In this document: positions 1 through 13,711 of the stretch, piece by piece
Numbering within the stretch: position 1 is the first letter of the stretch
Layout: the number at the start of each line of letters is the position of its first letter
Assembly: GCA_040879765.1 (NCBI GenBank)
Contig: JBBDJQ010000002.1
Coordinates: 5 to 64,004, forward strand
DNA from: Candidatus Pacearchaeota archaeon
GTDB lineage: Archaea > Nanobdellota > Nanobdellia > Pacearchaeales > GW2011-AR1
Direction: 5' to 3'
Length of the DNA: 64,000 nt
The notes under the pieces: model-generated
Databases searched by the model: none
The model's input: the letters and a program-made list of their open reading frames with translations, nothing else
What the model was told of the DNA's origin: nothing
Position numbers and translations under genes: made by a program

Positions 1-56
<56 letters not shown>

Positions 57-82: not shown

Positions 83-229
83 TTATTTATTCAAGGTGCC
101 AATTCCAAAAAGGAGTACCAAAACAGCCCATAGGTAATTAAGTTGTCCTGACCAATCCATGAACTCAATTAGTCCCATAAGGATTCCAACAACGATAGCT
201 CCCCAGCCGAGAACTTCTTTTGAAAACAT
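83..229 (-). CDS. small hydrophobic protein (48 aa, one or two TM helices)
   Basis: ORF MFSKEVLGWGAIVVGILMGLIEFMDWSGQLNYLWAVLVLLFGIGTLNK, preceded by GGAGGTGGG Shine-Dalgarno-like motif. Not in the ORF track because it is under 60 aa. Confidence 0.3.
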   Translation of the reverse strand: MFSKEVLGWGAIVVGILMGLIEFMDWSGQLNYLWAVLVLLFGIGTLNK

Positions 230-479: not shown

Positions 480-1220
480 CTATTTCACCTTTCTGAGTTC
501 TCCAAAATTGAAGATTTCTCCATCCTTCCCAATTGCATAAGCATTGAATTTTTTCAATTCTTTTTTAGGAATTATTGAAAATTCTTTGTCTGGGTCTTCA
601 TTTTTATAATCCATATTTACAGGAGTTCCCTCAATCATTCCAAAAAAACTTGGTAGGATCAAAACTTGTTTATTTTTATATTTCCCAACTAAAAAAGATT
701 TGTATTTTTCTTTTTTTATCCCCTCGTCATCCGATAGCAAAATGGAAGGATGCAAATGTCCTGTCACAAGTGTTTTTACCTCTTTAGAAAAAATCTCAGG
801 AAAAGATTTGTGCCCATGTAAAAAAGCAATTCCAGAATCAATATGGTAATCTTCCATTTTCTTTCCAGTAAAATCAAATGTGTCGTGGTTTCCTTTTATT
901 AAAATAACATCTTCTTCTTTAACATAATTTTTTAACAAATCTAAAACTTGATTAAAATAAAATTTTTCTCTCCACTCATATCCAAAATAATGTTTTAAAT
1001 CTCCAAGGAAGATAATTTTTTTTAAAGTATAATTTTTTGATTTTGCTCTATCAAGAATTTCTTTTATATTTTCAAGTAACTCTTTTATCTGTGTTTCGGG
1101 AACCATGAACCCAGAATCTCTTAGAGCTTGTTCATAGCCAATATGCAAATCTCCAAATGCTAAAATTCCTTGCTTAGGAAAAAATGCGGTCTTTTCTATA
1201 AAAATAAATTCGTTTTCCAT
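480..1220 (-). CDS. calcineurin-like metallophosphoesterase (Lhr-associated MPE / SbcD-like, archaeal TIGR00024-type)
   Basis: Motifs GDLHIG, GDLKHY, GNHD and GHLHP. Start codon overlaps the stop of the upstream HEAT gene (translationally coupled). Confidence 0.7.
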   Translation of the reverse strand: MENEFIFIEKTAFFPKQGILAFGDLHIGYEQALRDSGFMVPETQIKELLENIKEILDRAKSKNYTLKKIIFLGDLKHYFGYEWREKFYFNQVLDLLKNYVKEEDVILIKGNHDTFDFTGKKMEDYHIDSGIAFLHGHKSFPEIFSKEVKTLVTGHLHPSILLSDDEGIKKEKYKSFLVGKYKNKQVLILPSFFGMIEGTPVNMDYKNEDPDKEFSIIPKKELKKFNAYAIGKDGEIFNFGELRKVK

Positions 1221-1606
1221 TAATCCCCCAATCTCTGCAAAGCAATCTCTGCGCTTTCAACTATTTCTGGTTCGTTTGATTTAAGAAATTTTTCTATAAG
1301 AGGCTTAACAGATTTATCTCCAAGAGTCGCCAAAGCAAGAATTGCCTCGTGCCTTACAAAAATATTTTTATCTTTTTCGATTGCTTCTTTAAGGTAAGGA
1401 ATTGCTATTTTTGGTTTTGCAATTTCTCCTAATGAAAAAGCAAATTCATGTCTTACTATGGGGGATTCGTCGGTTAGCAAAGCTTTTCCTAAATTTCTTA
1501 AAGATTCCTCTTTAATAGCATCTTCTAGCTGAAAAGCTGCCTGAATTCTTTCTTCTTTACTCCTATTTTTATCTAAAACCGCTTCATCAAATTCTTCCTC
1601 ATTCAT
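1220..1606 (-). CDS. HEAT-repeat (PBS-lyase type) protein
   Basis: Tandem repeats of the pattern ...VRHEAAFALGEIA.... 4-nt overlaps with both neighbours. Confidence 0.6.
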   Translation of the reverse strand: MNEEEFDEAVLDKNRSKEERIQAAFQLEDAIKEESLRNLGKALLTDESPIVRHEFAFSLGEIAKPKIAIPYLKEAIEKDKNIFVRHEAILALATLGDKSVKPLIEKFLKSNEPEIVESAEIALQRLGD

Positions 1607-4254
1607 CTTCTTTTTCCTCTTCTAATATGTTTTATTTGTTTAAATGGGATGTTGACAGTTTCGCTTCCTTTATTTTCTATTATTTTAATATGCTCATCAT
1701 GCATCCTCTTAAGGAACTTTTGCCTGTCCTCAATCCTAATTAAATCACTATATCCTTGGATTATTAAATTTGTTGCAAAAGGAGAAGGCAAGGGAGTTTC
1801 GCGAATATTTATTTTTAATTTCTTTTCCTTCATCCAACTAATAACAAGTTTTGCATTTTCAATGTCCATCAAGTCTTCCATAACCTCTCTTCTTGCCTCC
1901 CTTAAAATTGGAAATTCGTTTGTAATTTTTTTTACGGCATGTAATAAAAAATGGCTTTTCATATGCTGTTTACCTGCAGTTTTACTCCTACCCTTATAAT
2001 TTCTTAAAATCATCAAAGATCTCCCAGCACAATGCCTAAATCTTCTTGCAAGAACATCTGTTTTTTCTATGGCTTCTTTTAAAACTTCTTCCAGATTATC
2101 TTTGTTTATGAATTTCAGAACCTTCTCAAAATTTTCTTCTTTAGCTGCTTCGCCAGCAATGTAGAATCCATTATCATTTATTCCTATTTCAACGTCTCTT
2201 TCTCCAGCGCGACCAAGTAGAAAACCAAAAGCTCTTGATAATGCATCATTTACTCTTCTCCCATAAGTTGTATGGAAAATCAAATAGTTCTTTTCGGATT
2301 TGTATTTCTCAACTAAGAGATTGTCTCCGTCTGGAATTTCTAAAAATTTATGTTGTTCATTAAAATAATTATATATTGAGTCTGCAGTTTCTTCTCTTAC
2401 ATAAAGTTCATTTCTAATTGTTTGCTTTATTTCTTCTTTCTTAGCTTTGTTCGTAAATTTTTCATTCATTAATTTTCTAAATTTTAAAATTTCTAAACCG
2501 GAATCAAAACTTAAGGGAAGCATTTCTGAAAACCAAGAGGGGATTGTTGGCGAGAGATGTTCTGCAGAGGCAACATAAAGGTTCATTCCTCGGGTGTATC
2601 TATAGAGGTATTTTTTTCCTCCAAGAACAAATACGTCTCCTTTTTTCATTCTTTCCAAAAAACCTTCATCAACAAATCCAATTGGAACTCCATCAGAAAG
2701 TTTTACAGTTATGAAAGATTCATCTGGAATAGTTCCAATGTTTGTTAAGTATAAAACTCTTGCAAGTCTTCCTTTCTTACCAATTTCCTGTGTTTCAGGA
2801 TCATACCAAATTTTCCCATATACATTATTGCTTTCTAATTCATATTCCCCCGCAAGATAACTGATCACATCATAGAAATCGTTTTTTGTTAAATCTTTAA
2901 AACAATAACTTTTCTTTATCGTTGAAAAAAGCTCATTTGCTTTCCAAATTTTATAAATAGCCATCCCAAAAATTTGCTGTGATAAAACATCTAAACAATT
3001 CCTTGGAAAAGAAATTCTATTTATCTTTTTCTCAATCATTTCTTTTTGTATTACCGAACATTCAACTAAATCATCTCGATCTAAAACAATGAATCTTCCT
3101 TTCGCAGTTTCATGAAGTTTATGTCCTGCCCTGCCCAATCTCTGTAATGCTCTGGAAGAAGATTTTGGAGAGCCCAACATTATAACCAAATCTATGTATC
3201 CTATATCTATTCCCATTTCTAAAGAGGTTGAACAAACCACAAGTTTTAGATTTCCTTTTCTCAATCTTTCTTCTATGTCAAATCGATGTTCTCTGCTTAA
3301 AGAAGAGTGGTGTGCTGCAATATTATCTTCACCATATTCTGTTGGGAACTTATCTTTTAAGTGACTCACAACACGTTCTGTTGCTGAACGAGTATTTGTA
3401 AAAATAACCGTTGTCTTATGTTCTTGAATTAATTTTGAAAGCAAATCATACATGCTTGTAGAAATATTTTTTCCTTCTATTAAATCCCTAACAGGAGTTA
3501 AAACATCTATGTCTATTTTTTTATTTAATGGCACGCGAACATATGAGACTTCACGATTTTTTTCCTCACCAACAAGATATTTTGAAACATCTTCTATTGG
3601 TTCTACAGTTGCTGAAAGCCCTATTTTAGAAGGAAAGCTTTCACTAACTTCGTTTAATCTTTCAAGAGTCAGACTTAGATATGTTCCTCTTTTGTTATCC
3701 ATTGCATGAATTTCATCAACAATGCAAAATTCAACATTCCTTAAGTTGTCCACAAATTTTTTACTTGTTAAGACAATTGCCAAGGATTCTGGAGTTGTCA
3801 CAAAAATGTGGGGGGGTTTTCTTGCCATCTTTGCTCTTTCTGCAATAGTGGTGTCTCCTGTTCTTAAACCAACACGAATTTCTTGTAATTTTAGCCCCCT
3901 CAATTTTGCTAGGATTTGAATTTCTTCCAGAGGTTCAATTAGATTTTTATGAACATCATTACTCAATGCTTTTAAGGGGGAAGTATAGACAGCATAAATC
4001 CTGTCTTCCAACTTTCCTTTATCCGCAAGAATTACAAGCTGATTAAGGATAGAAAGAAACGCTGTTAAGGTTTTTGTGCTTCCAGTTGGGGCAGAAATTA
4101 GTATGTTTTTCCTTTTCCAAATATTCATGACTCCATACTGCTGAGTAAGTGAAAGCTCCTTGAACTTTGAGAAGAACCATTCTTTTACAAGAGGATGTAA
4201 AACTTTCTTGATTTCGTCTACACTATGTTTTTCAGCAATTTTTACTTTAGTCAT
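1603..4254 (-). CDS. lhr: Lhr-type ATP-dependent DNA helicase (superfamily 2, DEAH-like)
   Basis: Motif I APTGSTKT, motif II DEIH, motif VI QRLGRAGH. 883 aa with a long C-terminal extension typical of Lhr-core. Confidence 0.75.
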   Translation of the reverse strand: MTKVKIAEKHSVDEIKKVLHPLVKEWFFSKFKELSLTQQYGVMNIWKRKNILISAPTGSTKTLTAFLSILNQLVILADKGKLEDRIYAVYTSPLKALSNDVHKNLIEPLEEIQILAKLRGLKLQEIRVGLRTGDTTIAERAKMARKPPHIFVTTPESLAIVLTSKKFVDNLRNVEFCIVDEIHAMDNKRGTYLSLTLERLNEVSESFPSKIGLSATVEPIEDVSKYLVGEEKNREVSYVRVPLNKKIDIDVLTPVRDLIEGKNISTSMYDLLSKLIQEHKTTVIFTNTRSATERVVSHLKDKFPTEYGEDNIAAHHSSLSREHRFDIEERLRKGNLKLVVCSTSLEMGIDIGYIDLVIMLGSPKSSSRALQRLGRAGHKLHETAKGRFIVLDRDDLVECSVIQKEMIEKKINRISFPRNCLDVLSQQIFGMAIYKIWKANELFSTIKKSYCFKDLTKNDFYDVISYLAGEYELESNNVYGKIWYDPETQEIGKKGRLARVLYLTNIGTIPDESFITVKLSDGVPIGFVDEGFLERMKKGDVFVLGGKKYLYRYTRGMNLYVASAEHLSPTIPSWFSEMLPLSFDSGLEILKFRKLMNEKFTNKAKKEEIKQTIRNELYVREETADSIYNYFNEQHKFLEIPDGDNLLVEKYKSEKNYLIFHTTYGRRVNDALSRAFGFLLGRAGERDVEIGINDNGFYIAGEAAKEENFEKVLKFINKDNLEEVLKEAIEKTDVLARRFRHCAGRSLMILRNYKGRSKTAGKQHMKSHFLLHAVKKITNEFPILREARREVMEDLMDIENAKLVISWMKEKKLKINIRETPLPSPFATNLIIQGYSDLIRIEDRQKFLKRMHDEHIKIIENKGSETVNIPFKQIKHIRRGKRR

Positions 4255-4345
4255 TAGAAATCAACCTTATAGATAGAAATAATTAAAAATTAGGGTTTAA
4301 TAAATTTGCTGCAAGATTTAAAAGACTAAAAAACAATTAGATTTT

Positions 4346-4825
4346 ATGGAAAATAAAAGTGTAGGATATATTGTCCTTGGGATTGCTGTTTTGCTTATAA
4401 TAATAGTGGCACTTTTCAATTCTACCCTGAAGGAAATTGTTGAAGTCGGATGTGAAGTTGGACATGGAATTTCCTGCCCCATGTATGATTCCATAAACAA
4501 ACAAACCTACCTCTCTCTTGGAATTGTGGGATTCTTAATAATTCTTGGAATAGTATTAATCTTTACAAAGCCAAAGGAAAAAATAATTGTCAGAAAGGTT
4601 AAAGAAAAAAAGAAGAAGCTGGATGTTGGGAAACTTGATAAAAAAGAAAAGCAAATTATTGAAATTCTTGGAGATGAAAATGGAGCAATGTTTCAATCAG
4701 AACTCAAGGAAAAATTGGATGTTGGGAAGGTTGGTCTTACAAGACTTTTAGATAAACTAGAAGCAAAGCAATTGATAGAGAGAAAAAGAAGGGGAATGAA
4801 CAATATTGTTGTTTTGAAAAGTTAG
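4346..4825 (+). CDS. membrane-anchored winged-helix (MarR/TrmB-like) DNA-binding protein
   Basis: Two predicted TM helices followed by a wHTH region (SELKEKLDVGKVGLTRLLDKLEAKQLIERKRRG). Confidence 0.45.
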   Translation: MENKSVGYIVLGIAVLLIIIVALFNSTLKEIVEVGCEVGHGISCPMYDSINKQTYLSLGIVGFLIILGIVLIFTKPKEKIIVRKVKEKKKKLDVGKLDKKEKQIIEILGDENGAMFQSELKEKLDVGKVGLTRLLDKLEAKQLIERKRRGMNNIVVLKS

Positions 4826-4858: not shown

Positions 4859-5506
4859 ATGCCATTCAAACTTTCTCCGTCTTCCTTGAATCTTATGAAA
4901 GAATGTCCTCGTTGTTTCTGGCTAACGCAGCATAAGGTGTGGAAAAGACCGACAGGGATTTTTCCAAGTCTTCCAAGTGGAATGGACAAAATTCTCAAAG
5001 AACATTTTAATAAATTTATGGATATTGGAGAGTTGCCTCCTGAATTGTACGACAATTCACATTGTGAAAATATGAAACTTTTTGACAACCATGAGATTCT
5101 TGCCATATGGCGAAGTAATTTTAAGGGAATCCAATGGGAAGATGGTAAAGGAAACATTCTCAGGGGTGCAGTTGATAATATATTAATGAAAGGAAAAAAA
5201 CTTATTGTGTTAGATTACAAGACAAGAGGCTATGCTTTAAAAGAAGATACTGCAGAACACTATCAAAATCAATTAGACATTTATAATTTCCTTCTAAGGA
5301 AAGCTGGCTATGAAACTGAAGATTACGCTTTCCTTTTATTCTATGTTCCTAGAGAAGTCACCAAAACCGGAGAGGTCATTTTTGATACGGAATTAGTAAA
5401 GATGAAGATTGATGTCAAAAATGCTGAAACAATATTTGAAAATGCAATAAGATTATTAAATTCTGATTGTCCTCAAAATAAATGTGAGTGGTGTGATGGA
5501 AGGTAA
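4859..5506 (+). CDS. Cas4-like / RecB-family PD-(D/E)xK nuclease with Fe-S cysteine cluster (DUF83-like), no CRISPR context
   Basis: N-terminal CPRC and C-terminal CPQNKCEWC cysteines. Core motifs VD...LDYK and QLDIYNFL (QhxxY). Confidence 0.6.
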   Translation: MPFKLSPSSLNLMKECPRCFWLTQHKVWKRPTGIFPSLPSGMDKILKEHFNKFMDIGELPPELYDNSHCENMKLFDNHEILAIWRSNFKGIQWEDGKGNILRGAVDNILMKGKKLIVLDYKTRGYALKEDTAEHYQNQLDIYNFLLRKAGYETEDYAFLLFYVPREVTKTGEVIFDTELVKMKIDVKNAETIFENAIRLLNSDCPQNKCEWCDGR

Positions 5507-7912: not shown

Positions 7913-8362
7913 ATGAAAAAAATTTATTTATTAATTTTTTCAGCAATGATAGTCCTTGCTGTTTTTTTTATTTTTAACGCAGAAAAAGTTGAAGGTACTG
8001 AAGCAGTATATTACAAATCAATTTCCTGCGGATGTTGTGATGCCCATTCAAAATATTTAAACTCTAAAGGATTTAGTGTAAAAGTAAATAATCTTCAGAG
8101 CATAGATTCAATCAAATCTGACTTTGGAGTCCCATATGAACTACGAAGTTGTCATACAGTAATTATTGATGATTATTTTGTTGAAGGACACATCCCTCTT
8201 GAAGCAATAAATAAACTTCTTGAAGAAAAACCCAATATTAGAGGAATTGCAATGCCTGGGATGCCATCAGGAAGCCCGGGGATGCCCGGAGCTAAAACAG
8301 GGTTCTTTAAAATATATTCTGTAAATCATGACGGAAGTTATGGGGAGTTTATGGAAATTTAA
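7913..8362 (+). CDS. DUF411 / CopG-like periplasmic metal-binding protein
   Basis: Signal/TM N-terminus, CGCCDAH motif and MPGMPSGSPGMPG motif, as seen in copper-resistance DUF411 proteins. Confidence 0.6.
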   Translation: MKKIYLLIFSAMIVLAVFFIFNAEKVEGTEAVYYKSISCGCCDAHSKYLNSKGFSVKVNNLQSIDSIKSDFGVPYELRSCHTVIIDDYFVEGHIPLEAINKLLEEKPNIRGIAMPGMPSGSPGMPGAKTGFFKIYSVNHDGSYGEFMEI

Positions 8363-8876
8363 GATGAATTCAAAATTTCTTTTTTTATTATTCCTGCCAA
8401 TTTTATCTATAGATCTTGTCTCAGCACATTGTCCCTTGTGCACCCTAGGTGCTGGAGCTGCGGCTGCTGGAGCAACCTGGGCAGGAATTAGCAAAGTTGT
8501 AGTAGGATTATTTGTGGGAGCCTTTGCCATATCTCTTGGAATGTGGTTTGCAAAGGCAATCAAGAAAAAATACATCCCTTTTCAAAAAACATTTATAGTC
8601 TTAATAATTTTCATTACTACTGTGTTTCCACTGCTTCCTATTTTTAGTGCTATCGGGCCTTTATATATTTCTTTCATAGGAGAATATGGAAAAACATATG
8701 CAATTGATTATTCTTTATTCAGCAGCATTCTCGGAGGGATTATTACATTTTCTTCACCCTACATAAGCAAAAACATCTCCAAAAGAAGGATGGGAAAAAT
8801 AATTCCTTTTCAGGGAGTGATAATCACCCTTGCCTCATTAATAATAATTGGAGGAGCTATTCAGGCATTCATATAA
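8328..8876 (+). CDS. polytopic membrane protein with HCPLC motif
   Basis: Signal-like N-terminus (start is probably the internal Met near 8364). HCPLCTLGAGAAAAG followed by four or more TM helices. Confidence 0.4.
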   Translation: MTEVMGSLWKFKMNSKFLFLLFLPILSIDLVSAHCPLCTLGAGAAAAGATWAGISKVVVGLFVGAFAISLGMWFAKAIKKKYIPFQKTFIVLIIFITTVFPLLPIFSAIGPLYISFIGEYGKTYAIDYSLFSSILGGIITFSSPYISKNISKRRMGKIIPFQGVIITLASLIIIGGAIQAFI

Positions 8877-9301
8877 TGGAAATGATAATGTGGTCATTGA
8901 TAGGGATAACAGCATTGTTTTTTGTTTTATTGGCAATTAAATCATTTTTAAAATCCGAAAAATTTTGTGTAATTTGTTCTTCAGTTACGTTAACATGGAT
9001 TATGCTGCTAATATTGCATTTCATGGGGGTTTTTACAAATAAAATAATTATTGCGATTTTGATGGGGATGACTGCTTTAGGAATTTATTATGCATGGGAA
9101 AAGAAAACTAAAAATAAAAACCTGATTTTTAGATTGCCTTTGTTGTTAACGCTCATTTTTATCATATATTCTATTCTCAGCAAATTAGTTTTAGAAGGTT
9201 TGTATTTTATTATTATTTTATGGGGGTTTTTTATTTTAATTTATTTCTTTGAATTTAATAAATTTGCAAGAAAGCTTGTGGAGTGCTGCAAAAAATGGTA
9301 G
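8876..9301 (+). CDS. membrane protein with CxxC (CVICSS) adjacent to a TM helix
   Basis: 4-5 TM helices. Translationally coupled to both neighbours. Confidence 0.4.
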   Translation: MEMIMWSLIGITALFFVLLAIKSFLKSEKFCVICSSVTLTWIMLLILHFMGVFTNKIIIAILMGMTALGIYYAWEKKTKNKNLIFRLPLLLTLIFIIYSILSKLVLEGLYFIIILWGFFILIYFFEFNKFARKLVECCKKW

Positions 9302-9726
9302 ATAAAAAATCAATTTTATACGGCATCCTTGCAGGTCTTGGCTTATTCAGTTTATACATTTTAATTGTTTCCTTCTTTCAGGGATTTCAATTTGCAATTT
9401 TAAATTTCAAAAGTTTATGGTTTTGGATTATACCCTTGGTGGCTGGCTTCGGAACCCAAATAGGACTTTACACATCAATAAAACATACTGCAGAAATGAC
9501 AGGAACCGTGGCTGTTTCAGGAACAATCTCTGGAGGATCAATGCTTGCCTGTTGTAGTCATTTTCTTTTAAACATAATTCCAGTAGTTGGTTTTTCTGGA
9601 ATTGCAATTTTTTTAGTGAAATATCAAACAGTCTTTTTTGGCATAGGAATAATTTCCAACATAATTGGAATAGGTTTTTTATTTAATCATAAAAGAAAAA
9701 TGAAAGGGGGTTGTCATAGTGAATAG
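9283..9726 (+). CDS. membrane protein with an intramembrane vicinal Cys pair (ACCSHF), MerT/MerF-like pattern
   Basis: 4 TM helices. CC followed by a Pro within a TM helix, reminiscent of heavy-metal transporters. Confidence 0.35.
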   Translation: MLQKMVDKKSILYGILAGLGLFSLYILIVSFFQGFQFAILNFKSLWFWIIPLVAGFGTQIGLYTSIKHTAEMTGTVAVSGTISGGSMLACCSHFLLNIIPVVGFSGIAIFLVKYQTVFFGIGIISNIIGIGFLFNHKRKMKGGCHSE

Positions 9727-9949
9727 TAAAATAATACTGTGGATTTTAGTGGCATTAGCAGTGTTAACTCTTATGGTTTTTATATTTTTTCCGTATGCGG
9801 GGCATGCAATAAAAGATTTTGGAGCAAATCAATATTCAAATAGTGATGGGGACATATGTTCTCCTCCTGAAGGGACTAGTAAAGAAGACTGGGAAGATCA
9901 TATGAGTCATCACCCAAATATCTATAGAAGTTGTTTGGAGAGAATATAA
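9719..9949 (+). CDS. small membrane-anchored His/Cys-rich protein
   Basis: One TM helix. C-terminal HMSHHP and CLE cysteine. Confidence 0.35.
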   Translation: MNSKIILWILVALAVLTLMVFIFFPYAGHAIKDFGANQYSNSDGDICSPPEGTSKEDWEDHMSHHPNIYRSCLERI

Positions 9950-9973
9950 AAAGAAGAGACCATTCAATAAAAA

Positions 9974-10459
9974 ATGAAAACACAAATTTTATTTTTAATG
10001 GGATTGATTTTTCTTTCAGTTTTTGTAATTGCACATTCTGAAGACACTTTCACGGAAGCCGAAAAGATAATAATGCAAAAAATTCCTTGTGAAAATTTAA
10101 CAAATGAACAACTAGAAATTGTTGGAGATTATTATATGGAACAAATGCATCCTGGAGAGCTTCACGAAGCAATGGATGAAATGATGGGTGGCGAGGGGAG
10201 TGAATCTCTTAAAGAGAATCACATAAATATTGCCCTGTCTTTTTATTGTGGAAAACATCAGGAATTTTCATCTGGAATGATGAACATAATGATGGGAAGG
10301 GACAGCTATTATGGATATGGAATGATGGAGGGTTATTATTATAGGGCAAATCCCCTATTATTTTTATTTAATGCTATTCTAATAATAATCCTTATTTTAT
10401 TTATAATTTGGATTTTAAAGAAAATTTTAGAAAATAAAAAACGTGGGAAAAGAAAATGA
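9974..10459 (+). CDS. secreted Met/His-rich putative copper-binding protein with C-terminal TM anchor
   Basis: Signal peptide. MxxxM/H-rich tracts (MEQMHPGELHEAMDEMMGG, SGMMNIMMG, YGYGMMEGYYY). Confidence 0.5.
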   Translation: MKTQILFLMGLIFLSVFVIAHSEDTFTEAEKIIMQKIPCENLTNEQLEIVGDYYMEQMHPGELHEAMDEMMGGEGSESLKENHINIALSFYCGKHQEFSSGMMNIMMGRDSYYGYGMMEGYYYRANPLLFLFNAILIIILILFIIWILKKILENKKRGKRK

Positions 10460-10875
10460 GTTATGGAATTAGCAAAAAAACAGATTTGGAGTTTAACATT
10501 GCTGTTAAAAAAGTAAAGTATGAACTCAAGAAAGAAGGATTTGGAGTTTTGACCGAGATTGATGTTAAAAAAACCTTAAAGGAAAAATTAGATGTTGACT
10601 ATGACAACTATGTTATTCTTGGATCATGCAATCCTCCTTTTGCATACAAGGCTCTTCTTGCAGAGAAGGAAATTGGTTTGCTTCTGCCCTGTAATGTTAT
10701 TATATATTCTTCAAACGGAAAGACTTTTGTTTCAGCGATAAATCCCGAAGAAGCCATGGCCATGATTAATAATCAAAAGTTAAGAGAAATATCCAAAGAA
10801 GTTGGAAAAAGGCTAAAAAAAGTAATTAATAGCATAAATAAAAATAAGGGAGGTGCAAATGGCTCAAAAGCTTGA
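10456..10875 (+). CDS. DUF302 domain protein
   Basis: Sequence pattern typical of DUF302 (PF03625), a family often found in metal-stress loci. Confidence 0.5.
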   Translation: MSYGISKKTDLEFNIAVKKVKYELKKEGFGVLTEIDVKKTLKEKLDVDYDNYVILGSCNPPFAYKALLAEKEIGLLLPCNVIIYSSNGKTFVSAINPEEAMAMINNQKLREISKEVGKRLKKVINSINKNKGGANGSKA

Positions 10876-11104
10876 CGAAAAGGCTCTTGCATACAGTCTT
10901 GCCACAATCTCAGCGGCAGGGATGCTTATTCTAGGGATATTTGGGTACGCAGGAATTTATTCCGGTGCTGTTGGTATGATGATGCAATGGCACATGTATT
11001 TCAGAATAAGCCCATTGTGGATTTTATTAGGAATGGTGGAGGCAGCAATATGGGGATTCATTGCAGGATATGCAACTGCATGGGTTTACAATAAATTTAC
11101 ATAA
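10853..11104 (+). CDS. small two-TM membrane protein
   Basis: 83-aa hydrophobic protein. Overlaps the end of the DUF302 gene. Confidence 0.35.
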   Translation: MQMAQKLDEKALAYSLATISAAGMLILGIFGYAGIYSGAVGMMMQWHMYFRISPLWILLGMVEAAIWGFIAGYATAWVYNKFT

Positions 11105-11150
11105 AATTTAAATGAAAACATTTAAATATTAATATGTTATATATTATCAT

Positions 11151-11513
11151 ATGATAAATAAGAGCATATTAAAAAAAGGCAGAAATAAAGGATTTAATGA
11201 CGAGGAGATTTATGAAGCCTACAAGATATTTTTTGGGACCCTTGTTTCTGAACAAAGATTAAAAATCATAAATTTCCTCAGAAAAGGCAAAAAAAGTGTT
11301 TCAGAGATAATGAAGGAACTAAGAATGAATCAAACATCAGTGTCTCACAATTTATCCAGATTAAAAAAATGTGGGTTCGTAAAATCAGAGATTAAAGGGA
11401 AATACCGTTATTATGAATTGGATAAAAAAACTATTCTGCCTTTAATGAATCTAATTAACAAACACATGCTGTCTAATTGTATCCACATATTAAACAATAA
11501 GAAAAAAGCATGA
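11151..11513 (+). CDS. ArsR/SmtB-family metalloregulatory transcriptional repressor
   Basis: HTH segment SVSEIMKELRMNQTSVSHNLSRLKKCGFV. Translationally coupled to copA. Confidence 0.7.
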   Translation: MINKSILKKGRNKGFNDEEIYEAYKIFFGTLVSEQRLKIINFLRKGKKSVSEIMKELRMNQTSVSHNLSRLKKCGFVKSEIKGKYRYYELDKKTILPLMNLINKHMLSNCIHILNNKKKA

Positions 11514-13711
11514 GGGAAATAAAGATAGATATAGATGGCATGAATTGTGCATCTTGTGCAACAAATATAGAAAAAAGTTTCAGAAAAATTAAAGGAGTGA
11601 AAAAAGCATCGGTCAACCTTATGGCTAAAAAAGGGTTCATTGAAACTGAAAAAGAGATGAGTGATAAGGAAATAGAAGAAGCCGTCTCAAGAGCTGGGGA
11701 TTACAGAGTTTTAAAATTAAATAATAAAGATCTTAATAAGGATGGGAAAAATAACCCACCTAGGCATGAAAACCATGATCATTCTAGAAAGGTTGAAGAA
11801 AAGGAAATAAATTTATGGAAAAAGAAAATGCTTTGGGCATGGATTATTACGATCCCCATAGCCTTCATCATGTTTTCTGAAAGATTATTCGGCATAAAAT
11901 TATTTGATGAGATTACCATGACGATTGTGCTTCTAATTTTATCATTCCCGGTTATATTTATAATAGGTTTTTCAACTCTCAGAGGGGGATTAAGAGGATT
12001 TATTAATTTGTATTTCAACATGGATTCTCTCATCGCTCTTGGAACAATTATAGCCTATGCCACAGGGATAATGAGTTTATTCATGAATATTCTAGATTAC
12101 TCTGGAATTGCTTCAATGATCATGGCTTTTTTCATAACAGGAAAATATGTTGAAACAAAGGCAAGAGGAAAGGCAAGTCAAGAAATTAAAAAATTGCTTG
12201 AACTCGGAGCTAAGAAAGCAAGAATTTTAAGAAAAAATAAAGAAATTGAAATTCCAATTTCAGAAGTTGTAGAAGGGGATGTTATGATAATAAAACCAGG
12301 TGAAAAAGTTCCCACAGATGGTATAATTATAAAAGGTGAAAGCAGCGTGGATGAAAGCATGGTTACTGGAGAAAGCATTCCTTCAGACAAATTAAAAGGG
12401 GACAATATTATTGGTTCTACCATAAATCAGGATGGGATTTTATATGTGAAGGCTACAAAAGTTGGGAAGGATACTTTTTTGTCACACATAATAAAACTTG
12501 TCGAAAATGCTCAAGGAACAAAAATTCCCATACAAAGATTTGCCGATAAAGTAACTAGTATTTTTGTGCCAGTCATACTGGCAATAACTGTTTTAACATT
12601 CTTTGCATGGATGTTCATCTTAGATGCGAGTCTAAGTCGAGCCGTAGGAGTTTCAGTTTCAGTATTGGTTATAGCCTGCCCCTGCGCATTAGGTTTAGCA
12701 ACTCCAACCGCCCTCATGGTTGGAAGCGGAATGGGAGCCAAAAAGGGAATTTTAATTAGAAGAGGCGAAGCAATACAAACTATGAAAGAAATAAAAATAA
12801 TTATATTTGATAAAACTGGCACTATCACAAAAGGTCATCCAGAAGTAAAAAAAATTTATTCAAAAATAAAAGAAAGCTATCTTCTTGAAATAGCTGCTAG
12901 CATAGAAAAACTCAGCGAGCATCCGTTATCAAAAGCAATTGTTGAAAAAGCCAATCTAAAAAAATACAAGCCTGTTAAAAATTTTAAAATCATAAGAGGA
13001 AAAGGTGTTGAAGGAAAAATAGGAAACAAATTAATTCTTATAGGGAATAGCTTATTGATGAAAGAAAGGGGAGTTTTGCTTAAAGAAATTAGGAGTAAGA
13101 TAAAAAGTTTTGAGGAAAAGGGCTACACTTCGATGATTGTATCTGAAAACAAAAAACCTCTGGGAGTGATTGGCGTTGCTGATGCAGTAAAAGAAGATTC
13201 AATTTCTTCTATAAAAGAGTTGAAAAATCAAGGCTATAGGATTGTCATGATTACGGGAGATAATGAAAGAACCGCAAAGGCAATTGCTAAACAAGTTGGC
13301 ATAAAAGAGGTAATAGCTAATGTTCTTCCTGATGACAAGGCAAAAATAGTAAAAAAAATGAAATCTAAAGGTATGACAGCATTTGTAGGAGATGGAATAA
13401 ATGATGCTCCTGCACTGAAGGAAAGCAATGTCGGGATAGCCCTCGGAACAGGAACTGATATCGCAATAGAGTCTGGAGACATAGTTCTTTCAAAAGGCTC
13501 ATTAAAGGGGGTTGTTCAGGCAATAAACCTAAGCAAGGCAACTTTTGGAAAAATAAAACAAAATTTATTCTGGGCCTTTGCATATAACACTCTTGCAATT
13601 CCTCTGGCCATCGCAGGTTTCTTACATCCGGTAATAGCTGAAATTGCAATGGCCTTAAGCTCTATAACTGTTGTTGGTAATGCAAATCTATTAAGAAGAA
13701 AAAAGATATAA
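11510..13711 (+). CDS. copA: copper(I)-translocating P1B-type ATPase
   Basis: N-terminal HMA domain (GMNCASCA), CPC transmembrane motif, DKTGTIT, GDGINDAP. Confidence 0.9.
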   Translation: MREIKIDIDGMNCASCATNIEKSFRKIKGVKKASVNLMAKKGFIETEKEMSDKEIEEAVSRAGDYRVLKLNNKDLNKDGKNNPPRHENHDHSRKVEEKEINLWKKKMLWAWIITIPIAFIMFSERLFGIKLFDEITMTIVLLILSFPVIFIIGFSTLRGGLRGFINLYFNMDSLIALGTIIAYATGIMSLFMNILDYSGIASMIMAFFITGKYVETKARGKASQEIKKLLELGAKKARILRKNKEIEIPISEVVEGDVMIIKPGEKVPTDGIIIKGESSVDESMVTGESIPSDKLKGDNIIGSTINQDGILYVKATKVGKDTFLSHIIKLVENAQGTKIPIQRFADKVTSIFVPVILAITVLTFFAWMFILDASLSRAVGVSVSVLVIACPCALGLATPTALMVGSGMGAKKGILIRRGEAIQTMKEIKIIIFDKTGTITKGHPEVKKIYSKIKESYLLEIAASIEKLSEHPLSKAIVEKANLKKYKPVKNFKIIRGKGVEGKIGNKLILIGNSLLMKERGVLLKEIRSKIKSFEEKGYTSMIVSENKKPLGVIGVADAVKEDSISSIKELKNQGYRIVMITGDNERTAKAIAKQVGIKEVIANVLPDDKAKIVKKMKSKGMTAFVGDGINDAPALKESNVGIALGTGTDIAIESGDIVLSKGSLKGVVQAINLSKATFGKIKQNLFWAFAYNTLAIPLAIAGFLHPVIAEIAMALSSITVVGNANLLRRKKI

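Follow-up and report, generated by a model that had tools for sequence, protein, structure and literature searches.

A homologue of one half of deoxyhypusine hydroxylase is a probable passenger between the lhr and mpe genes of a Pacearchaeota sublineage

We describe a three-gene locus in a 64,000-nucleotide stretch of DNA from Candidatus Pacearchaeota archaeon (contig JBBDJQ010000002.1, positions 5 to 64,004), referred to throughout as the window. The three genes lie on the minus strand at window positions 480-4254. The upstream gene encodes an archaeal-type Lhr-core helicase of superfamily 2 (SF2; 1603..4254, 883 aa). It is followed by a gene for a small protein of four HEAT repeats, apparently a single-module homologue of deoxyhypusine hydroxylase (DOHH), which sits as a guest in the slot between lhr and mpe (1220..1606, 128 aa). 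The last gene encodes an MPE-type binuclear metallophosphoesterase (TIGR00024 / COG1407; 480..1220, 246 aa), on the same strand as lhr and 387 nt downstream of it. A first-pass annotation of this DNA had identified all three open reading frames (ORFs) and proposed that they form a new DNA-repair module, with the HEAT protein as a stoichiometric scaffold between helicase and nuclease. Its coordinates and domain calls are borne out, the latter by profile matches for all three proteins (Lhr, HEAT repeats and TIGR00024 phosphoesterase), and the lhr-mpe arrangement that it recognised is indeed reproduced here, with both families identified on the same strand. Plus-strand ORFs within 480-4254 were rejected as unsupported, being nested entirely in the long minus-strand genes. 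No second copy of the HEAT, Lhr or MPE gene was found in the 64-kb window. Proteins identical to those of the window are P0001 and P0121. As read from the sequence, an AT-rich intergenic region of 91 nt (4255..4345) separates lhr from a divergent gene for a membrane MarR-like protein, and is the presumed promoter site of the three-gene unit.

The genes are packed tightly, although not by two ATGA overlaps as had been described. The Lhr stop and the HEAT start do share ATGA, a 4-nt overlap (...AGAAGATGAATG...), whereas at the HEAT/MPE junction stop and start have one base in common, in TAATG (...GGGGATTAATGGAA... / ...GATTAATGGAA...). A crude ORF call of the window shows overlaps in 17 of 46 pairs of same-strand neighbours; the overlap is 4 nt long in six pairs and 1 nt in two. 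The coding fraction is 92.5% and the GC content 31-35%. Start/stop overlap is thus the norm in the source genome, which is metagenome-assembled, and because so many same-strand pairs overlap, the overlaps at this locus say nothing on their own about stoichiometric complexes.

The helicase is, on its domain content, a complete Lhr-core. Pfam matches cover the motor (DEAD, 1.7e-26; Helicase_C, 3.2e-19), the winged-helix domain at residues 405-566 (WH_Lhr, 7.1e-35, profile positions 2-163 of 168) and domain 4 at residues 640-827 (DEAD_assoc, 5.5e-56, positions 1-191 of 191), so that a profile check of the Lhr-core including both of the latter domains came out positive. The NCBIfam model PRK13767 matches residues 7-865 at 1133.1 bits, above its cut-off of 849, and the closest PDB matches are the Mycobacterium smegmatis Lhr structures 5v9x (5e-105) and 7lhl (about 1e-105). 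A Hel308 identity was rejected, as model NF040935, with a cut-off of 1200, gave 45.9 bits and matched only the motor domain; other SF2 identities were likewise ruled out by profile scores. The assignment to Lhr rather than Hel308 therefore stands. At least 120 homologues with 71-79% identity were found in Pacearchaeota and Nanoarchaeota, and motif II, DEIH, is present in 120 of the 120 listed. Motif I (Walker A) is atypical. It reads APTGSTKT (residues 48-55, at about window positions 4090-4113, minus strand), and the pattern APTG[GS][TS]KT, wherein Thr or Ser replaces the usual Gly before Lys, occurs in 119 of the 120 listed close homologues (P0121-P0240). Because it is so conserved, we presume that this Walker A is probably functional.

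The phosphoesterase matches TIGR00024, a model for SbcD-related archaeal phosphoesterases, over residues 3-245 with a score of 124.8 (cut-off 115.2), which confirms the type proposed for it, while an identity as the bacterial ligase-associated PdeM was rejected (TIGR04123, 77.9 against a cut-off of 150). We find the motifs GDLH (residues 23-26), GDLKH (73-77), GNHD (110-113), HGH and GHLH (154-157). In an alignment with the Pseudomonas putida MPE structure 6nvo, the motifs GDLH, GDLKH, GNHD and GHLH match D33/H35, D78, H81, N112/H113 and GHxH of that enzyme, with H77 of the window protein aligned to His81 and H112 to His113. According to the P. putida report, His81 and His113 are essential for nuclease activity (PMC7826289). 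Judged by this alignment, all metal-binding and nuclease-specific residues are kept in the window MPE.

Pairing of these two families is already known. The TIGR00024/COG1407 gene adjoins aLhr2 in DPANN genomes and in scattered other archaea according to Hajj et al. 2021 (PMC8301817), who among bacteria count 276 of 319 genomes with MPE beside lhr. As in the published aLhr2-TIGR00024 neighbourhoods, both families in the window are adjacent and on the same strand, but the window has in addition a 128-aa HEAT gene with overlapping stops and starts. Hajj et al. mention no intervening HEAT gene, and we found nothing relevant in the literature pairing Lhr with a HEAT repeat. Because the lhr-mpe pairing in DPANN is published (PMC8301817), the HEAT insertion alone could be new, and it is limited to one Pacearchaeota sublineage, as set out below. 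Compared to the Lhr-Core/MPE operon of P. putida (PMC7826289; PDB 6nvo), the locus shares the Lhr-core architecture of SF2 motor, winged helix and domain 4, along with the MPE metal ligands and the equivalents of His81 and His113. It differs in that the window MPE is only distantly similar to the P. putida protein (E = 0.003) and fails the PdeM equivalog, in that the cluster lacks a ligase or exonuclease gene, and in a Walker A of G-S-T-K-T in place of G-S-G-K-T. By family membership and conserved catalytic residues, Lhr would be a 3'-to-5' single-strand translocase/helicase and MPE a Mn-dependent single-strand DNA endonuclease, and by analogy with the known systems the two most likely form a conserved functional DNA-repair pair, probably acting together on damaged DNA.

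To place the HEAT gene in context, the lhr-mpe junction was surveyed from both sides. A metagenome scan with the window Lhr gave 69 loci, with 46-91% identity on the best-matching segment and 61-83% for near-full-length matches. In 42 of these, mpe lies downstream of lhr on the same strand; seven further loci having about 5 kb of downstream sequence contain no mpe. The gap between the two genes is 130 nt or less, with no gene between, in 14 of the 42 loci, and 0.4-2.7 kb with inserts in the other 28. The inserts are diverse and comprise Fic, a HepT/MNT toxin-antitoxin pair, RadC, a cupin, SAICAR synthase (purC), AsnC-type regulators, DUF1801 and unannotated ORFs (examples among L031-L093 are L064:7649-8483, L039:3276-3947 and L092:7621-8181). 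A HEAT gene occupies the gap in only four loci, from two organisms, and is absent in 38. This indicates a variable slot between lhr and mpe in Pacearchaeota, often empty and otherwise filled with assorted, unrelated cargo.

The HEAT family itself is large, with at least 184 clusters at 55-74% identity across Pacearchaeota, Woesearchaeota and Nanoarchaeota. A survey anchored on the HEAT gene, taking one genome per GTDB species, gave 30 loci. In 28 of these the gene is unlinked to lhr or mpe and stands beside unrelated genes, and only in the two closest loci, L001 and L002, are Lhr and MPE found within 6 kb. By matching identities and gene layout, the two organisms with a HEAT gene in the Lhr-anchored sample appear to be the same as L001 and L002. 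Present in 4 of 42 Lhr-anchored loci and linked to lhr-mpe in only 2 of 30 genomes of the HEAT-anchored survey, the HEAT gene is no general component of lhr-mpe loci, and the integral role that the scaffold proposal gave it is unsupported. By its own account, that proposal would be refuted if other lhr-mpe loci lacked HEAT and had unrelated genes in its slot, which is largely what we see. The order in L001 and L002 is Lhr, Fic (171-184 aa), HEAT, an antisense ORF (110-118 aa) and MPE. Because the antisense ORF lies between them, any co-transcript of HEAT and MPE in these two loci would have to cross an opposing gene. We also see that tight Lhr-HEAT-MPE coupling is dispensable, since the Fic gene and the antisense ORF separate the genes in these two members of the clade.

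The neighbours of the 28 unlinked HEAT genes are heterogeneous, with NFACT-R in five loci and DUF4346 in four, and further loci showing aminoacyl-tRNA synthetases, FtsZ, superoxide dismutase (SOD), Fe-S assembly genes, a tRNA-intron endonuclease or Spt5. No conserved neighbour that would reveal a pathway was found, as every neighbour family is limited to 6 of 31 loci or fewer.

The three-gene order of the window is not a one-genome accident. When the closest HEAT homologues were looked up, the compact Lhr-HEAT-MPE order was found in five more contigs (L101, L104, L105, L106 and L107), where neighbouring genes overlap by up to 20 nt or lie up to 2 nt apart. One of these shows a peculiar state: at L105:2282-5979, Lhr is split into ORFs of 829 aa and 72 aa and MPE is cut to 199 aa, while HEAT is intact, which may mean that the repair genes are decaying or that the assembly is wrong there. 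In total there are eight linked HEAT copies (window, L001, L002, P0003, P0006, P0008, P0011 and P0012), and in a neighbour-joining tree they form one clade nested among unlinked ones. The next relative, P0016, with 66% identity, is unlinked. Since the order recurs in eight related sequences of one clade, co-transcription in the linked lineage is plausible.

The simplest history suggested by these sequences is a single relocation of a widespread DPANN HEAT gene into the lhr-mpe slot, in the ancestor of one sublineage. The Lhr-HEAT-MPE order would then have been inherited vertically, with later insertion of Fic and an antisense ORF in some clade members and compaction in others, including the window genome, where loss of spacers would have produced one overlapping, probably co-transcribed three-gene unit. 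Under this history the HEAT protein would be co-expressed with Lhr and MPE in the linked lineage owing to its landing site, and most likely keeps the function that it has in genomes where it is unlinked. We consider it likely, although by no means certain, that the locus comprises a repair pair and a passenger HEAT gene that arrived by a single relocation, and that a dedicated helicase-nuclease scaffold is not encoded here. The locus is, in short, a lineage-specific variant of a known gene pair, and the HEAT insertion is its sole possibly new part.

Several observations weigh against the HEAT gene being a mere passenger. Overlapping or abutting Lhr-HEAT-MPE genes are kept in at least six distinct clade members, and the linked order persists over roughly 25% divergence in Lhr and 45% in MPE, a persistence that could reflect selection for co-expression. 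Where the genes are not adjacent, the HEAT protein may still interact with the pair in trans, because both sides of such an interaction may occur in most DPANN genomes. The Lhr-anchored loci were selected by exact peptide words from the window Lhr, so that the proportions among them are indicative, and the sample contains duplicates (L031 = L093, L035 = L036, L037 = L042, L053 = L054 and others). Finally, the tree that places the linked copies in one clade was made without bootstrap from a protein of 128 aa.

What the passenger might do is suggested by its relationship to DOHH. The protein has Pfam matches to HEAT_2 (4e-28) and HEAT_PBS (36.7 bits), and its AlphaFold2 model (pLDDT 97) has eight helices that make up four repeats. 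The family alignment contains 33 invariant positions, including H53-E54 and H86-E87, and these two His-Glu pairs are invariant in 24 of 24 family members, with the same residues in linked and unlinked copies. A profile of the family, aligned at full length, matches human DOHH (PDB 4d4z) twice, at residues 16-135 with 49.5 bits and at residues 166-285 with 46.9 bits, and it places H53-E54 and H86-E87 in register with H56-E57 and H89-E90 of the first half and with H207-E208 and H240-E241 of the second. In the human enzyme, H56, H89, E90, H207, H240 and E241 are the ligands of the di-iron centre, and substrate binding depends on E57 and E208. In a Foldseek comparison, 4d4z is the best natural match to the predicted model, with a query-normalised TM-score of 0.90 and a root-mean-square deviation of 1.4 Å over 126 columns. 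The two proteins (human DOHH: 4d4z/4d50) share the E-Z/PBS-type HEAT fold, His-Glu motifs at an equal spacing of 33 residues, and a C-terminal E-x-x-E-[ST] helix. From profile and model together, we conclude that the HEAT protein is a single-module DOHH homologue.

Human DOHH is a single chain with eight repeats in two halves, four His-Glu motifs and one di-iron site, whereas the window protein, at 128 aa and four repeats, corresponds to one half of it. With two of the four DOHH His-Glu motifs per chain, it would have to dimerise to complete a site, and two copies of the 128-aa protein arranged head to head would supply the whole DOHH ligand set. By analogy with the human enzyme, the most probable function of the HEAT protein is as a homodimeric di-metal (iron) protein built like two DOHH halves, with dimerisation, metal binding and enzymatic activity all predicted on this basis.

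Designed alphaRep binders share the repeat type with the HEAT protein and give the highest raw sequence scores, but they lack the His-Glu pairs, and their residues at those positions are variable (R/A and others) where the HEAT family is invariant. MTH187 (PDB 1te4), a thermostable archaeal HEAT-like repeat protein, matches at E = 0.004 only. We rejected a phycobilin-lyase function (CpcE/F, NblB, CpeY), as the NblB and CpeY models gave 29 vs 300 and 14.5 vs 600 and the repeat type alone is shared. A YibA-type model scored far under its cut-off, and matches to AlkD-like HEAT DNA glycosylases were insignificant (AlkD2 6m9m, E = 0.37).

An exhaustive profile search of 1.84 billion representatives gave 99 matches at E <= 1e-30. 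The top ranks are held by giant multi-repeat proteins and by two-module proteins of 244-265 aa with four His-Glu motifs; the named ones among the latter come from Heimdallarchaeota, Kariarchaeaceae and an 'Asgard group archaeon' (P0241, P0245, P0247 and P0248, at loci L100 and L109-L112). Eukaryote-like DOHHs of about 300-330 aa rank after the two-module Heimdall proteins. The one-module DPANN proteins are 37-48% identical to either Heimdall half and 24-33% identical to eukaryote-like halves, and a rough neighbour-joining tree groups them in a clade of their own, next to the Heimdall halves.

Compatible with the passenger interpretation is the more specific idea that the HEAT protein is an active homodimeric DOHH acting on aIF5A, its operon position being incidental. 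The match to both DOHH halves, the motifs in register and without variation, the close fold match, and the order in which the larger relatives rank all argue for it, as does the automatic JGI label 'deoxyhypusine monooxygenase' on several family members, and the neighbours of unlinked HEAT genes lean towards translation and oxygen or iron genes. Weighing against it, the protein has just one half of the DOHH architecture, and the idea thus presupposes a dimer. In the 30 DPANN loci the HEAT gene showed no link to deoxyhypusine synthase (DHS) or aIF5A, neither of which is among the top-listed neighbour families, and in three Heimdallarchaeota loci neither gene was found beside the two-module homologues. 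Patterns for a DHS motif and the hypusination loop of aIF5A had no match in the 64-kb window either, a negative that carries no information given how little of the genome the window covers. DOHH requires O2, yet many DPANN archaea live without it. The archaea reported to contain hypusine are Crenarchaeota, said to have no DOHH homologue, and papers on archaeal aIF5A modification state that archaea have yielded no DOHH orthologue (PMC5178350, PMC6105217). Our literature search linking DOHH with Asgard archaea or Heimdallarchaeota, or deoxyhypusine with DPANN lineages, found nothing relevant. From the sequence matches and the predicted fold, we regard DOHH activity on aIF5A as a real but, on balance, doubtful prospect.

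The scaffold proposal, in which the HEAT protein of the linked lineage physically joins Lhr to MPE in a stoichiometric ternary complex, with ratios set by translational coupling, fares worse. The compact overlapping order kept in the window and in L101, L104, L105, L106 and L107 speaks for it, and HEAT repeats are classic protein-binding surfaces, with designed binders as the top sequence matches. Co-occurrence does not support it: the slot lacks HEAT in 38 of the 42 lhr-mpe loci, including the 14 that are gene-free, 28 of 30 genomes carry the family at another place, the linked copies form one clade, and in L001 and L002 the gene is parted from both presumed partners by Fic and the antisense ORF. 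The invariant residues correspond to DOHH metal and substrate ligands, not to a variable binding surface, and the gene overlaps are generic in the source genome. Taken together, these observations make a dedicated scaffold improbable. Less probable still is a functional association that is regulatory rather than structural, with the HEAT protein responding to iron or oxygen and adjusting repair by Lhr and MPE once oxidative damage has occurred, since the conserved putative di-iron ligands, the SOD, AhpC and Fe-S assembly genes beside unlinked HEAT in a few loci, and the persistence of the linked arrangement in one clade are set against oxidative-stress genes in only 2-3 of 30 loci and a linkage confined to that one lineage.

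If the HEAT gene is a passenger, as we prefer, the import of the locus for DNA repair is small, given that Lhr-MPE pairing in DPANN is published and that the comparative data present the HEAT gene as a lineage-specific passenger. What the survey adds is the Pacearchaeota lhr-mpe junction as a variable slot that gathers Fic, toxin-antitoxin and other cargo. The guest gene is the most interesting element, as a candidate single-module archaeal DOHH with its catalytic His-Glu motifs intact. We tentatively raise the possibility, which we think more likely wrong than right, that a one-module homodimeric DOHH is the 'missing' archaeal DOHH in DPANN, with a two-module form in Heimdallarchaeota, and that it preserves the pre-duplication ancestor of the eukaryotic enzyme. 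Were this true, the gene would have hitch-hiked into the operon of lhr and mpe or, with lower probability, its placement there would connect DNA repair to oxidative chemistry. Both deoxyhypusine hydroxylation in some archaea and the origin of the pseudo-symmetric eukaryotic DOHH could be tested with these small, easily expressed proteins.

Around the locus, two plus-strand genes diverge from lhr: one (4346-4825) encodes a MarR-like winged-helix protein with a membrane anchor, the other (4859-5506) a PD-(D/E)XK nuclease that has a Cys cluster at its C-terminus. In related loci a MarR-like gene is found upstream of lhr in eight cases and a PD-(D/E)XK nuclease in five. Most members of the linked clade (L101 and L104-L107) have NrdR, an ATP-cone protein and ribonucleotide reductase divergently upstream of lhr, a context that the window lacks. 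Further along the plus strand lies a copper/metal cluster (7913-13711), in which genes for several small membrane proteins are interspersed among those for a DUF411 protein, a DUF302 protein and an HMA-domain P-type ATPase. At the other end, a long trinucleotide microsatellite of about 15 copies takes up window positions 1-50 and reaches the window edge; its plus-strand reading is (TAA)n and its minus-strand reading (TTA)/(ATT)n, and it follows closely downstream of a small ORF for a membrane protein (about 85-228, minus strand).

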